IMG/VR virus record: IMGVR_UViG_2636415959_000001
Span: 1-33,961 of that record
Reading direction: 5' to 3' (one strand)
Length of the DNA stretch: 33,961 nucleotides
DNA from: a virus
Lineage: Duplodnaviria; Heunggongvirae; Uroviricota; Caudoviricetes
Part shown: positions 11,790-17,268 of the stretch, piece by piece
Layout of the letters: each line of letters starts with the position of its first letter
Position numbering within the stretch: position 1 is the stretch's first letter
The notes under the pieces: generated by a model
Seen by the model: the letters and a program-made list of their open reading frames with translations, nothing else
Database searches by the model: none
What the model was told of the DNA's origin: nothing
Position numbers and translations under genes: made by a program

Positions 11790-12113
11790 ATGAAGATGCC
11801 TGAAAAACATGACCTGTTAGCCGCCATTCTCGCGGCAAAGGAACAAGGCATCGGGGCAATCCTTGCGTTTGCAATGGCGTACCTTCGCGGCAGATATAAT
11901 GGCGGTGCGTTTACAAAAACAGTAATCGACGCAACGATGTGCGCCATTATCGCCTGGTTCATTCGTGACCTTCTCGACTTCGCCGGACTAAGTAGCAATC
12001 TCGCTTATATAACGAGCGTGTTCATCGGCTACATCGGTACTGACTCGATTGGTTCGCTTATCAAACGCTTCGCTGCTAAAAAAGCCGGAGTAGAAGATGG
12101 TGGAAATCAATAA
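11790..12113 (+). CDS. S: Holin, lambda S family (dual-start MKM)
   Basis: 107 aa, near-identical to lambda S as recalled ([39 protein letters not shown]...); upstream leader also lambda-like. Confidence 0.9.
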
Positions 12114-12573
12114 TCAACGTAAGGCGTTCCTCGATATGCTGGCGTGGTCAGAGGGAACAGATAACGGACGTCAGAAAACCAGAAATCATGGTTATGACGT
12201 CATTGTAGGAGGAGAGCTATTCACTGATTACTCCGATCACCCTCGCAAACTTGTCACGCTAAACCCAAAGCTCAAATCAACAGCCGCCGGACGTTACCAG
12301 CTTCTTTCACGCTGGTGGGATGCTTACCGTAAACAGCTTGGCCTGAAAGATTTTTCTCCAGAAAGCCAGGACGCTGTAGCTCTGCAGCAGATTAAAGAGC
12401 GTGGCGCTTTACCGATGATTGACCGTGGCAATATTCGTCAGGCAATCGACCGTTGCAGCAATATTTGGGCTTCATTGCCCGGTGCTGGCTACGGTCAGTA
12501 TGAACACAAGATCGATAGTCTGATTGCCAAATTCAAAGAAGCTGGCGGGGTGGTTAATGAAACTTCGCTATAA
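12097..12573 (+). CDS. R: Endolysin, lambda R-type lytic transglycosylase
   Basis: 158 aa, [49 protein letters not shown]... closely matches lambda R. Confidence 0.9.
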
Positions 12574-12949
12574 GCTGGTTATTTCTGCTTTCCTCCTGAC
12601 TTTATTCGGTTCTCTCGTCTGGTCAGCTAACCACTACCACAGCAAATACCAGCGCGAAAAGAAACGTGCTGATGAGGCTGTACAAAATGCCGAATCGGCA
12701 ACCGCTATTACCAATAACGTCCTGCAATCACTGCAAATCGTCAATACAGTTCTGGAGGCTAACCAGCATGCAAAACAGCAGATCACACTGGAGTCACAGA
12801 GAACCCAGGAAGATATCAAAGTGGCTGTTGCGGATGATGATTGTGCTTCACGTCCTGTGCCTGCTGCCGCTGCTGACCGGTTGCGGAAGTACGCGAACAG
12901 TTTACGTGCCTATTCCGGCGGTACCGTTGCCAGCAAGCCTGACTACTGA
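12557..12949 (+). CDS. Rz: Spanin inner-membrane subunit (Rz-like i-spanin)
   Basis: 130 aa from ATG 12557; N-terminal TM helix (ISAFLLTLFGSLVW), coiled-coil-like remainder; position after endolysin. Confidence 0.7.
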   Translation: MKLRYKLVISAFLLTLFGSLVWSANHYHSKYQREKKRADEAVQNAESATAITNNVLQSLQIVNTVLEANQHAKQQITLESQRTQEDIKVAVADDDCASRPVPAAAADRLRKYANSLRAYSGGTVASKPDY

Positions 12950-13132: not shown

Positions 13133-13483
13133 ATGCCTCCTCGAACCCCAAAAGCCTGCCGCGTTCGCGGCTGCCCCCATACCACCACTGACTCGTCAGG
13201 CTATTGCGAAAGGCACAAAAGCGAAGGCTGGAAGCAATACAAGCCAGGCCAGTCCCGTCATCAGCGCGGTTATGGTTCGAAGTGGGACAGTATCCGCGCG
13301 CGCGTCCTGAAGCGTGACAAAGGTTTATGTCAGTTATGTCTGCGTGCCGGTGTGGTGCGTGAAGCTAAAACCGTTGACCACATCATCCCTAAAGCGCATG
13401 GCGGCACCGATGCAGACAGTAATCTGCAGAGCCTGTGCTGGCCGTGCCATAAGACGAAGACGGCCCGTGAACGGCTAAAGTGA
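13133..13483 (+). CDS. HNH endonuclease (terminase-associated)
   Basis: 116 aa; Cys-rich zinc motifs (CRVRGCPH..CERH; CQLC..CWPCH) and HNH core ..VDHIIPKAHGGTDADSNLQSLCWPCH..; immediately upstream of terminase genes. Confidence 0.8.
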   Translation: MPPRTPKACRVRGCPHTTTDSSGYCERHKSEGWKQYKPGQSRHQRGYGSKWDSIRARVLKRDKGLCQLCLRAGVVREAKTVDHIIPKAHGGTDADSNLQSLCWPCHKTKTARERLK

Positions 13484-13509
13484 TAATAATTCTCAACTGC
13501 TTGAGGGGA

Positions 13510-13569
13510 GGGGCGGGTCAAATCCCTGTGGCCTGACGTCTTCCGGACTGCCCGCCCCATCGTTTTTTT
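13510..13569 (+). terminator. GC-rich long hairpin with T-tract (terminator-like; possibly cos-related)
   Basis: GGGGCGGG (13510-13517) ... CCCGCCCC (13551-13558) inverted repeat followed by TTTTTTT (13563-13569), between the HNH and terminase small subunit genes. Confidence 0.4.
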
Positions 13570-13608
13570 ATACCCGCGAAAAATGAAATTTAACCAGGAG
13601 TGCCGCAT

Positions 13609-14103
13609 ATGGCTGGAACGGCGGGGCGTTCCGGGCGTCGCCCCAAGCCAACGGCGCGCAAGGCGCTGGCCGGAAACCCCGGCAAGCGAGCCCTGAACAA
13701 AGATGAACCTGTTTTTACGCCCATCAAAGGTGTTGAGCCACCAGAGTGGTTCGCTGAAGAAGATCTCCCTCTCGCCACGATCATGTGGCAACTGACAACC
13801 AAAGAACTCTGCGGTCAGGGCCTGTTGTGCGTGACTGACCTCGCGGTGCTTGAGCGGTGGTGCGTGGCCTATGAGTTCTGGCGACGTGCCGTGAAAAATA
13901 TTGCCATACAGGGCAACACCATCACCGGTGCAATGGGCGGCAGGGTCAAAAATCCGGAGCTGACCGCCAAAAAAGAACAGGAGTCCGAGATGAGCAGCAC
14001 GGGGGCAATGCTCGGACTCGACCCCAGCAGCCGCCAGCGTCTGATTGGCCTGGCGGGGCAGAAGAAAGCCACTAACCCGTTTCTGAAAATCATCGAGTCA
14101 TGA
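13609..14103 (+). CDS. Terminase small subunit (P27-family-like)
   Basis: 164 aa from ATG 13609 (RBS AGGAG 8 nt upstream); Arg/Lys-rich N-terminus; stop overlaps the terL start (ATGA). Confidence 0.75.
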
Positions 14104-15833
14104 GCCGGAAATCTTACCCCAACGTAAATGCTGCCAATCAGTATGCCCGTGATGTTGTGCGCGGAAAGATTGTGGCCTGCCAGTTTGTGATTCAGGCCTG
14201 CCAGCGCCATCTTGATGACCTGATGGCGGAAAAAAGTAAGTCGTTTCGTTACCGCTTCGACAAGGACCTGGCTGAACGGGCCGCGAAATTTATTCAGCTG
14301 TTGCCGCACACCAAGGGGGAGTGGGCATTCAAACGGATGCCCATCACGCTGGAGCCGTGGCAGCTATTTGTGATCTGCTGTGCGTTTGGCTGGGTCAATA
14401 AAGGCACCCGGTTGCGCCGCTTCCGGGAGGTGTACACCGAAATCCCCCGTAAGAACGGCAAATCAGCAATCTCTGCCGGTGTTGCCCTGTATTGTTTTGC
14501 CTGTGATAACGAGTTTGGCGCGGAAGTGTATTCCGGTGCCACGACAGAGAAACAGGCGTGGGAAGTCTTTCGCCCGGCACGACTGATGTGTAAACGCACA
14601 CCCATGCTGACGGAAGCGTTCGGGATTGAGGTTAACGCCTCAAACATGAACCGTCCGGAGGATGGCGCGCGGTTTGAACCGCTGATCGGCAACCCAGGTG
14701 ATGGTTCATCACCCCACTGTGCCGTGGTTGATGAATATCACGAGCATGCCACCGATGCGCTTTATACCACAATGCTTACCGGGATGGGGGCGCGACGTCA
14801 GCCACTGATGTGGGCCATCACCACCGCCGGGTACAACATTGAGGGGCCGTGCTACGACAAGCGGCGGGAAGTCATCGAGATGCTCAACGGCTCGGTGCCT
14901 AACGATGAACTGTTCGGGATCATCTATACCGTTGATGAAGGTGACGACTGGACCGACCCGCAGGTGCTGGAAAAAGCCAATCCAAATATTGGCGTGTCGG
15001 TTTATCGCGAATTTTTGTTAAGTCAGCAGCAGCGTGCGAAAAATAACGCCCGTCTGGCAAACGTCTTTAAAACAAAACACCTCAATATCTGGGTGTCGGC
15101 GCGTTCGGCGTATTTCAACCTGGTGAGCTGGCAGAGCTGCGAGGATAAATCACTGACCCTTGAGCAGTTCGAGGGGCAGCCGTGCATTCTGGCCTTTGAC
15201 CTGGCGCGTAAGCTGGATATGAACAGCATGGCGCGACTTTATACCCGCGAGATTGACGGTAAAACGCATTACTACAGTGTGGCCCCGCGTTTCTGGGTAC
15301 CGTATGACACGGTGTACAGCGTCGAGAAAAATGAAGATCGACGGACAGCCGAACGCTTTCAGAAATGGGTGGAAATGGGCGTTCTGACCGTTACCGATGG
15401 TGCGGAGGTGGATTATCGCTACATCCTCGAGGAGGCCAAAGCGGCGAACAAAATCAGCCCGGTCAGTGAGTCACCCATCGACCCCTTCGGGGCGACCGGG
15501 TTGTCACATGACCTTGCTGATGAAGACCTGAACCCCATCACTATCATTCAGAACTACACCAACATGTCCGACCCGATGAAAGAGCTGGAAGCGGCAATTG
15601 AATCGGGGCGCTTTCATCATGATGGCAATCCCATCATGACCTGGTGTATCGGCAACGTGGTCGGCAAAACCATTCCGGGTAACGATGATGTGGTGAAGCC
15701 CGTCAAAGAGCAGGCGGAAAACAAAATCGATGGTGCAGTTGCGCTGATTATGGCGGTTGGCAGAGCCATGCTGTACGAGAAAGAAGACACGCTGTCTGAC
15801 CACATTGAGTCCTATGGGATCCGCTCGCTTTAA
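14100..15833 (+). CDS. Terminase large subunit
   Basis: 577 aa; ATPase-like N-terminal half and nuclease-like C-terminal half; position between terS and portal. Confidence 0.85.
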
Positions 15834-15844
15834 CTGAGGTAATT

Positions 15845-16027
15845 ATGATCATGCTGATTCTCGCGCCTCTGGTGGGCGTGCTGGGGGCGCTTTTGCTGGC
15901 GTATGGTGCCTGGCTGATTTATCCCCCGGCGGGGTTTGTTGTTGCCGGGGCGTTGTGCCTGTTCTGGTCGTGGCTGGTGGCGCGATATCTTGACCGTACA
16001 CAGTCGTCTGTCGGCGGAGGTAAATAG
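15845..16027 (+). CDS. Small membrane protein (60 aa, two predicted TM helices)
   Basis: [45 protein letters not shown]; RBS GAGGT 4 nt upstream of ATG. Confidence 0.45.
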
Positions 16028-17268
16028 TGTTCTTTTCGGGATTATTTCAACGAAAAAGTGACGCACCGATGACCACGCCAGCAGAGCTGGCGGAGGCTAT
16101 CGGGTTGTCCTACGACACCTATACCGGAAAGCAGATCAGCAGCCAGCGGGCCATGCGACTGACGGCGGTTTTTTCCTGCGTCAGGGTGCTGGCAGAGTCG
16201 GTCGGGATGTTGCCCTGCAATCTGTATCACCTGAACGGCAGCCTGAAACAGAGAGCCACCGGCGAGCGTCTGCATAAGCTGATCTCCACGCATCCCAATG
16301 GCTATATGACGCCGCAGGAGTTCTGGGAGCTGGTGGTCACCTGTCTGTGCCTGCGGGGAAACTTTTACGCCTACAAAGTGAAAGCATTTGGCGAAGTGGC
16401 TGAACTGCTGCCCGTCGATCCCGGCTGTGTGGTACCGAAGCTTAACAGTAGCTGGGAGCCGGTCTATCAGGTCACATTCCCGGATGGCTCCACGGATGTA
16501 CTGAGCCAGGAGGATATCTGGCATGTGCGCACGCTGACGCTGGACGGACTGGTGGGGCTGAATCCCATCGCCTATGCCCGCGAGGCAATATCGCTGGCGG
16601 CAGCGACCGAAGAGCACGGGGCCAGACTGTTCAGCAATGGCGCGGTGACGTCGGGTGTGTTGCGTACAGAGCAGACGCTGTCAGATCAGGCTTATGAGCG
16701 CCTGAAGAAAGATTTTGAGGAGCGTCACACCGGGCTTGGCAATGCTCACCGCCCGATGATCCTTGAGATGGGGCTGGACTGGAAGTCGATGGCGCTGAAC
16801 GCCGAGGACAGCCAGTTCCTGGAAACCCGCAAGTTTCAGCTTGAAGAAATCTGTCGTCTGTTCCGGGTGCCGTTGCACATGGTGCAGAACACCGATCGCG
16901 CCACCTTCAACAATATCGAAGAGCTGGGGCTGGGATTTATCAACTATTCACTGGTGCCGTATCTGACCCGCATCGAACAGCGGATCAACACCGGACTGGT
17001 ACGAAAAAGTAAGCAGGGCGTTTATTACGCCAAATTTAACGCCGGGGCGTTACTGCGCGGGGATATGAAGTCCCGTTTTGAAGCCTACGCCACCGGGATC
17101 AACTGGGGAATTTACTCTCCCAATGACTGCCGCGACCTGGAAGATATGAATCCACGACCCGGTGGTGATGTCTATCTCACACCGATGAACATGACCACGA
17201 AACCCTCCGATGGCAGTAAAGCCGGTAAGCAGAAGGATAACGCCAATGCAGACGAAACAACGTCTTGA
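16027..17268 (+). CDS. Portal protein (HK97 family)
   Basis: 413 aa; position after terL, before prohead protease; alternative start ATG 16069 (MTTPAELAEA). Confidence 0.8.
   Translation: MFFSGLFQRKSDAPMTTPAELAEAIGLSYDTYTGKQISSQRAMRLTAVFSCVRVLAESVGMLPCNLYHLNGSLKQRATGERLHKLISTHPNGYMTPQEFWELVVTCLCLRGNFYAYKVKAFGEVAELLPVDPGCVVPKLNSSWEPVYQVTFPDGSTDVLSQEDIWHVRTLTLDGLVGLNPIAYAREAISLAAATEEHGARLFSNGAVTSGVLRTEQTLSDQAYERLKKDFEERHTGLGNAHRPMILEMGLDWKSMALNAEDSQFLETRKFQLEEICRLFRVPLHMVQNTDRATFNNIEELGLGFINYSLVPYLTRIEQRINTGLVRKSKQGVYYAKFNAGALLRGDMKSRFEAYATGINWGIYSPNDCRDLEDMNPRPGGDVYLTPMNMTTKPSDGSKAGKQKDNANADETTS

Follow-up and report, generated by a model that had tools for sequence, protein, structure and literature searches.

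The window analysed here is the whole of a 33,961-nucleotide stretch, corresponding to positions 1 to 33,961 of the IMG/VR virus record IMGVR_UViG_2636415959_000001 (Caudoviricetes). It hosts a small ORF of 60 codons, lodged between the genes encoding the large terminase (TerL) and an HK97-type portal protein. The terminase stop codon lies at 15831-15833, and the small ORF begins 11 nt downstream. The portal start at 16027 is backed by relatives, which have an ATG at the homologous position and share a conserved MFF N-terminus. The features of the region are collected in Table 1. Upstream of the packaging genes (window 11790-12949) is a lysis cassette of the holin-endolysin-Rz type, in which an ORF in an alternative frame is embedded. 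The interval 13133-14103 encodes an HNH endonuclease (13133-13483) and then the small terminase, TerS (13600-14103). The order HNH-TerS-TerL-portal-protease-capsid is typical of cos-type HK97-like modules.

Table 1. Features of the TerL-portal interval (window coordinates)
Feature	Position	Strand	Remarks
Large terminase gene	14100..15833	+	Upstream neighbour; Pfam TerL_ATPase E=8.5e-26, TerL_nuclease E=5.3e-34
GAGG Shine-Dalgarno of the small ORF	15836..15839	+	5 nt 5' of the ATG; read off the sequence
ymfR-type CDS, 60 aa	15845..16027	+	ATG 15845, TAG 16025-16027; YmfR identity, PHROG 502 match, dN/dS
First hydrophobic helix, codons 2-25	15848..15919	+	Gly/Ala/Leu-rich; G11, G14 and G21 invariant
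Small RNA hairpin, 6 bp, 7-nt loop	15862..15880 (ORF nt 18-36)	+	Covariation at synonymous sites
Signature turn motif, codons 20-31 (12 residues)	15902..15937	+	From 100 family representatives
Second hydrophobic helix, codons 29-46	15929..15982	+	A basic tail (codons 47-60) forms the C-terminus beyond it
GGAGG Shine-Dalgarno of the portal gene	16016..16020	+	In the Gly-Gly codons conserved at the C-terminus of the small ORF
TAGTG stop/start overlap	16025..16029	+	G16027 common to the small ORF stop and the portal GTG
HK97-type portal gene	16027..17268	+	PF04860 E=4.4e-108; putative partner of the ORF, from linkage

The feature itself is already known, as YmfR and as PHROG 502. The encoded product is identical at 60 out of 60 positions to YmfR of the E. 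coli K-12 prophage e14 (WP_000605606.1), and judging from this 100% identity the ORF had been recognised before as ymfR. Residues 1-55 match PHROG 502, a family described as "membrane protein" (E=2.5e-28) and filed in the category "moron, auxiliary metabolic gene and host takeover". The stretch is present in 1372 of 5426 complete E. coli genomes, in which RefSeq names the gene ymfR and its product "protein YmfR". The ORF was sought in close relatives, in which absence or disruption would have spoken against a functional gene; it is intact in SfI, SfII, ST64B, phiP27 and further phages, and the stretch is found at a coverage of at least 80% in 1361 of the 5426 E. coli genomes. K-12 YmfR, SfII_03, ST64B Sb3 and phiP27 L37 are the same gene. 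The terminase and portal genes flanking it are full-length in the window, whereas those of e14 are pseudogenes. Orthologues are denominated "putative integral membrane protein" in the phage records (SfII_03, phiP27 L37, ST64B Sb3), and "head-tail joining protein W" in ON470584, ON470603 and PQ793804. The ORF is present yet unannotated in the Yersinia phage PY54 (AJ564013.1, 2382-2468) and in SfIV (KC814930.1, 2382-2483). No family covering the small protein or the region was found in Pfam, NCBIfam, PADLOC or Rfam, and the PADLOC defence models matched neither the window protein nor two distant members. Literature searches on the function of ymfR retrieved only deletion lists, a list of membrane-protein clones and expression tables; no report was found of a small membrane protein upstream of the portal gene, or of a linkage to it. 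The present analysis adds to this how large the family is, the motif that marks it, and the finding that its members are almost invariably coupled in translation to HK97-type portal genes.

In the e14 prophage of K-12 (locus L208, 1397-3134) ymfR is intact, and is located between a 5'-truncated terminase and a 3'-truncated portal pseudogene, in the gene order aaaE-ymfR-beeE (PMC12956098). Its survival in a defective prophage could be due to chance, or could hint at a benefit independent of the portal. Exposure of K-12 to an SOS-inducing drug raises the expression of ymfR (log2FC 4.5) alongside that of other e14 genes (PMC10012262). Late or lytic expression of ymfR is thus shown by the co-induction with the e14 lytic genes and by the lack of promoter-like sites upstream of the ORF.

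The length of the ORF is by itself uninformative, because the DNA is GC-rich and as many as 86 ORFs of at least 30 aa are found in 8 kb; conservation decides. Protein searches identified 167 homologues, nearly all of exactly 60 aa, in Escherichia, Shigella, Salmonella, Citrobacter, Klebsiella, Enterobacter, Yersinia, Hafnia and Buttiauxella, and the length is fixed at 60 aa across about 100 enterobacterial clusters. In divergent relatives the forward frame is open throughout (64-67 codons), and an antisense ORF of 78 aa falls to pieces of 22-39 aa. Pairwise dN/dS values range from 0.09 to 0.42 for the small ORF and from 0.01 to 0.10 for TerL and portal; purifying selection is therefore weaker on the former, in which replacements are mostly confined to the C-terminal tail. 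The small ORF is a real gene under purifying selection.

A profile search against 1.84 billion representatives expanded the family to 381 clusters (50% identity) at E<=1e-3, nearly all made of proteins of 45-90 aa. The conserved core is found at the turn between the two helices and fits the motif (S/A)(Y/F)GAW(L/M)(I/V)YPPAG(F/Y)I. The consensus drawn from 100 motif-anchored representatives is (R)D-L-x-G-x-x-G-x-x-L-(V/I)-(S/A)-(Y/F)-G-A-W-L-(I/V)-Y-P-P-A-G-(F/Y)-I-x-x-G-x-L-L ... A-(R/K). In these 100 sequences, preselected by a pattern that fixed the G and the second P, the residues of the turn are conserved at 96% (W), 82% (Y), 82% (A) and 91% (G). Proteobacterial and Ruminococcaceae proteins of the family retain the turn motif. 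YPPAG is missing from a second subfamily, which has diverged further and features the motif G.(Y/R)L(Q/R)FG...AL; it includes the proteins of SfV, Ralstonia phage YO158_1 and Synechococcus phage Ssp-JY37. Three sequences carry labels pointing to Gram-positive or alphaproteobacterial sources, namely OR844959.1 ('Enterococcus phage Efm 3-10', 1764 bp), L005 (a 'Bacillota bacterium' MAG contig) and L015 (a 'Martelella alba' contig). Two of them host this enterobacterial phage module at 96-100% identity, and the L015 portal is 78% identical; the labels probably reflect contamination or mis-binning.

Both hydrophobic stretches of the window protein exceed the classical Kyte-Doolittle threshold of 1.6, the 19-residue maxima being 2.67 (residues 1-19) and 1.81 (residues 28-46). 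The AlphaFold2 model, built on 18 homologues, predicts helices at residues 2-25 and 27-57 with a mean pLDDT of 76. The sequence-only reading of the locus had described a hydrophobic 60-aa protein with two helices, preceded by a ribosome binding site and an ATG and set between terminase and portal, and the GAGG tract, the ATG at 15845, the hydropathy profile and the modelled helices all agree with that description. In typical family members the two helices span about 18 and 16 residues, have glycines at regular intervals, and are joined by an aromatic turn containing prolines. Lysine and arginine residues are concentrated at the ends (means over the 100 representatives: N tail 1.64, C tail 1.21, turn 0.19). 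By the positive-inside rule, the basic tails suggest that both ends are cytoplasmic. Hydropathy, charge distribution and model together suggest that YmfR sits in the inner membrane in an N-in/C-in orientation; as the helices are short in most members (16-18 residues), a re-entrant topology is conceivable instead. Four members of 102-122 aa (P0151, P0162, P0182, P0259) are tandem double hairpins, which suggests self-association, with hairpins acting as dimers or oligomers. A fold search of the model against PDB and BFVD retrieved nothing at E<=0.001, the hits being generic helical hairpins and uncharacterised small phage proteins.

The sequence-only reading also held that the GC content of the ORF matched that of its neighbours, and that the gene was probably native rather than a moron. 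The match holds for GC3 (68.9% in the ORF, 64.9% in TerL, 68.8% in portal). The overall GC content is instead slightly higher in the ORF (60.1%, versus 54.2% in TerL and 56.2% in portal), because the protein is rich in Gly, Ala, Leu and Pro. Scanning revealed no promoter-like site upstream of the ORF, which has neither promoter nor terminator of its own. Morons are marked by such signals, by a deviating composition and by a patchy presence; here GC3 equals that of the portal gene, and the position is fixed across phyla. Since GC3 is like that of the neighbours, promoter-like sites are missing and synteny is extremely conserved, the earlier assignment is upheld: the small ORF is a native late gene, translationally coupled to the portal gene.

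The coupling is evident from two independent pattern scans, one run on one genome per bacterial species (38 loci), the other on IMG/VR viral contigs with a distant family member as lead sequence (80 loci). Neighbouring genes were classified by iterated HMMs derived from the TerL, portal, protease and capsid proteins of the window. The ORF is found immediately 5' of an HK97-type portal gene in essentially all the loci of both scans. Among 92 non-identical locus sequences including both genes, 76 feature a 1-nt overlap of stop and start codons (TGATG, TAATG or TAGTG), four a 4-nt overlap, and eight a spacing of 0 to +3 nt, so that 88 junctions fall within -4 to +3 nt. Hosts of these loci include Enterobacterales, Reyranella, Shinella, Rhodoferax, Lysobacterales, Geobacter and Ruminococcaceae MAGs. 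The ORF still adjoins the portal gene when identity to the window drops to 28-39% for the portal and to 21-27% for TerL. The hairpin architecture and the near-invariant adjacency to the portal gene, with overlapping stop and start codons, are thus shared by very distant phages. The invariant GG(K/E/D) C-terminus coincides with a G-rich Shine-Dalgarno sequence at the same site in enterobacterial relatives, and is accounted for by the portal ribosome binding site being encoded there. A fusion of hairpin and portal in one polypeptide was sought as Rosetta-stone evidence and not found, the longest protein among the best 150 representatives being of 122 aa.

The distance from TerL varies instead from overlapping or near-abutting genes to more than 2 kb of inserted cargo. 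In a Reyranella MAG (locus L035, 2815-4868, minus strand) two reverse-strand cargo genes, one for a 359-aa product in which the Fic motif HPFQDGNGR occurs and one for a USP-like product of 293 aa, separate TerL from the hairpin ORF, and nothing separates the latter from the portal gene. Insertions of 386-1400 bp were also noted at the same TerL-ORF site in other Reyranella-type loci. The homology of SfV to the window stops at about 15752, in the last 80 nt of TerL, and that of phi467 and 606R7 starts at about 15815, 30 nt 5' of the ORF. An ORF inserted between hairpin gene and portal gene was found in one locus only (L139), besides a few degraded copies. Because insertions and homology breaks fall 5' of the ORF, the unit of inheritance and translation is made of hairpin gene and portal gene, not of terminase and hairpin gene. 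Correlations over 28 loci gave rho 0.53 for ORF identity against portal identity and rho 0.67 against TerL identity, and did not discriminate between the two partners; local identities of a 60-aa hydrophobic query are unreliable, and the conclusion is based on homology breaks and insertion sites. Placement of the ORF in the packaging module, as originally described, is correct as to its position between terminase and portal; the ORF is however tied to the portal, and not to the packaging module as a whole.

SfV was considered as a natural deletion, since its TerL is 97% identical, its portal is only 28% identical, and a 100-bp gap is annotated between the two. This was rejected on finding in the interval a match to the family HMM (E=1.8e-5). 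The match corresponds to an unannotated two-helix ORF of 53 aa (L002, U82619.2, 2289-2450), MKSLIADVIGLAGFGLLTCGVYLQFGMAPALILSGALLLVGALAMARRGTRAA. The portal gene of SfV was probably annotated with a start (2392) that lies too far 5'; translation from a GTG near 2438 gives V-LLDALFRSKS, which matches the conserved portal N-terminus.

HK97-type portal homologues were found in 2059 phage records, 15 of which were inspected in detail. The hairpin ORF precedes the portal gene in five (SfV, Vibrio K330, Pseudomonas SC_9, Ralstonia YO158_1 and Synechococcus Ssp-JY37). It was not found in the other ten, which are mEpX2, Pseudomonas phi2, BR52a, VarioGold (Variovorax), Kp4885-3 (Klebsiella), Bacillus WBeta, Streptococcus Javan55, Moraxella Mcat4 and two gut Firmicutes phages. 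In mEpX2, a member of the subfamily Hendrixvirinae that stands here for the HK97 lineage, the stop of TerL and the start of the portal gene overlap. As ten of the 15 sampled phages lack it, the hairpin ORF is not generally required for an HK97-type portal. The conservation across HK97-like relatives that the sequence-only reading had proposed as a check is therefore partial: the ORF accompanies one set of HK97-type portal genes, and is missing from HK97 itself as represented by mEpX2.

The coding region also hosts a small RNA hairpin (Table 1). ORF nt 21 and 33, two synonymous third-codon positions (Ala/Thr7, Gly11), make up the pair at its centre, which covaries in 15 enterobacterial sequences (GC in eight, UA in four, CG in two, UG in one). 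Cells of the hairpin are paired in 95.6% of the cases, against 29-53% in slid registers, and the observed score was reached in none of 500 shuffles. No Rfam family matches this ORF-internal hairpin.

The features described may be reconciled in the following scheme. YmfR, the product of a native late gene of the head module, is a hairpin of about 60 aa, in which two short hydrophobic helices rich in Gly and Ala are joined by the aromatic YPPAG turn. Ribosomes ending at the TAG (16025-16027) would restart at the overlapping portal GTG (16027), helped by the GGAGG tract in the last codons of the ORF, and YmfR would be produced in a fixed ratio to the portal. It could then recruit or nucleate the portal ring, or the polysome translating the portal, at the inner membrane, where prohead assembly would begin. 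Translational coupling normally serves proteins made in fixed proportion; hence a joint action of hairpin and portal is the simplest interpretation. An action of YmfR on the portal, by recruiting or nucleating ring or polysome at the membrane for prohead initiation, is proposed tentatively, by analogy, and with confidence somewhat short of even. Adjacency and coupling could serve expression only, and the intact ymfR of e14, set among truncated terminase and portal genes, could point to a role independent of the portal.

Other roles may be envisaged. YmfR could be a late membrane effector unrelated to capsid assembly, either influencing the timing of lysis like holins or antiholins, or depolarising the membrane, or involved in superinfection exclusion. 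Class II holins, pinholins and T4 Imm-type proteins are likewise phage-encoded, have about 60-80 aa and two hydrophobic helices, and the size and layout of YmfR resemble those of class II holins and other small phage membrane proteins. The category assigned to PHROG 502, the persistence of ymfR in the defective e14 next to truncated terminase and portal genes, and the many HK97-type phages that do without the ORF all fit such a role. Yet the window has a lysis cassette of its own, and unlike the genes for those proteins the ORF is not located beside an endolysin gene and is found in a late, rather than early or lysogenic, context. No match to Pfam holins (E<=1) or to PADLOC models and no similarity to T4 Imm were detected. 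Accessory genes are moreover normally mobile, while the 1-nt overlap with the portal gene is kept in 76 of 92 non-identical locus sequences across phyla; genuine cargo enters upstream of the ORF, and at L035 never the gap between ORF and portal, and the ORF lacks promoter and terminator of its own. An effector of this kind is accordingly regarded as rather unlikely. Less probable still is that the ORF is essentially a cis-acting translational device, which delivers ribosomes to the portal start and keeps the portal at a low, fixed level, the peptide itself being of minor importance; dragging the polycistronic mRNA to the membrane would perhaps be an added role. Overlapping stop and start codons are indeed the most conserved feature, the portal Shine-Dalgarno resides in the last codons of the ORF in enterobacterial members, and a covarying RNA hairpin is found 17 nt into the ORF. 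Many alphaproteobacterial junctions, such as AACCGCGCGGCCGGTTGATGG, feature no obvious Shine-Dalgarno, so that translation of the portal is there probably ensured by reinitiation. A spacer ORF, however, would not retain a 12-residue motif (GAW.IYPPAGF) and a two-helix layout, and the motif is kept while identity falls to 28-39% for the portal and to 21-27% for TerL. The dN/dS values below 1, and the length fixed at 60 aa in about 100 enterobacterial clusters, similarly argue for a functional peptide.

That the hairpin is a component of the virion, which would carry it at its portal or neck and release it upon infection to assist the passage of DNA through the inner membrane, appears very improbable. 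Synthesis coupled to that of the portal would suit this role, and the Gly-rich hairpins and their tandem doubles suggest that rings or channels are built from several copies; a very hydrophobic protein of 60 aa would however be hard to keep soluble in a capsid, no structural match to solved virion proteins was obtained, and literature searches found no virion proteome reporting YmfR. Two annotations found in databases have next to nothing to recommend them, namely that the ORF encodes a head-tail joining protein of the lambda gpW type, or that the segment is no gene and corresponds to a rho-independent terminator. The former label is found in the three GenBank records mentioned above. Lambda gpW is small (68 aa) and its gene, called W, is located between those for large terminase (A) and portal (B), overlapping both; this similarity in size and gene position accounts for the "W" labels in some annotations. 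But gpW acts in head completion and is soluble, unlike the hydrophobic hairpin YmfR, and the two share no sequence similarity: gpW identity was ruled out by a BLASTP comparison with lambda W, which gave no alignment at E<=100, and by the lack of Pfam gpW matches. As to the terminator, one is annotated in the SfII record at the equivalent of window 15853-15902, overlapping the small RNA hairpin, and scanning detected a terminator-like hairpin at 15863-15890. This reading was also discarded, as relatives do not preserve the long hairpin, no more than four U residues come after it, and coding conservation of the ORF is strong; a real terminator at this site would besides cut off expression of portal, protease and capsid genes.

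The action on the portal proposed for YmfR finds a conceptual parallel in phage T4. The sequence-only reading had seen no obvious role in head assembly for a membrane protein, a statement which leaves T4 out of account. In that phage the portal initiator, made of gp20, is built on the inner membrane with the help of the viral protein gp40, on which it depends, and of host YidC, to which it can be cross-linked (PMC9958956). The T4 record describes gp40 as "membrane-associated initiator of head vertex assembly". Both gp40 and, putatively, YmfR are phage-encoded factors tied to the portal and involved in its assembly at the inner membrane. The two proteins differ markedly, as gp40 (114 aa) is acidic and hydrophilic and lacks hydrophobic helices, whereas YmfR is hydrophobic. 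The gp40 gene is located far from gene 20, and the T4 portal is also of a different type. Comparison of gp40 with the YmfR family revealed no profile similarity (hhalign probability 0.1%). Since gp40 is hydrophilic and acidic and is not similar to the YmfR family, the parallel is one of concept only.

Nucleation of the portal ring and its placement at a single vertex are, to our knowledge, poorly understood outside a few model phages, and we know of a documented membrane step in portal assembly essentially for T4 only. In hundreds of divergent HK97-type phages a hairpin gene is firmly linked to that of the portal, which provides a testable hypothesis on membrane-associated prohead initiation. 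Carriers include common prophages of E. coli, Shigella and Salmonella (e14, SfI, SfII, SfIV, ST64B, phiP27), and the orphan K-12 gene ymfR gains a context. Several annotations are corrected in accordance, namely the unannotated ORFs of SfV, SfIV and PY54, the over-extended start of the SfV portal gene, and the "gpW" and "terminator" labels. Should the protein prove dispensable, the ORF would be an unusually conserved leader for translational coupling. It is conceivable, although doubtful at present, that YmfR-type hairpins are an overlooked head-assembly factor, forming a membrane oligomer that templates or anchors the dodecameric ring of HK97-type portals. If so, the inner membrane would be the site where many temperate phages of Gram-negative bacteria begin to assemble their proheads, as in T4 but by means of an unrelated protein.
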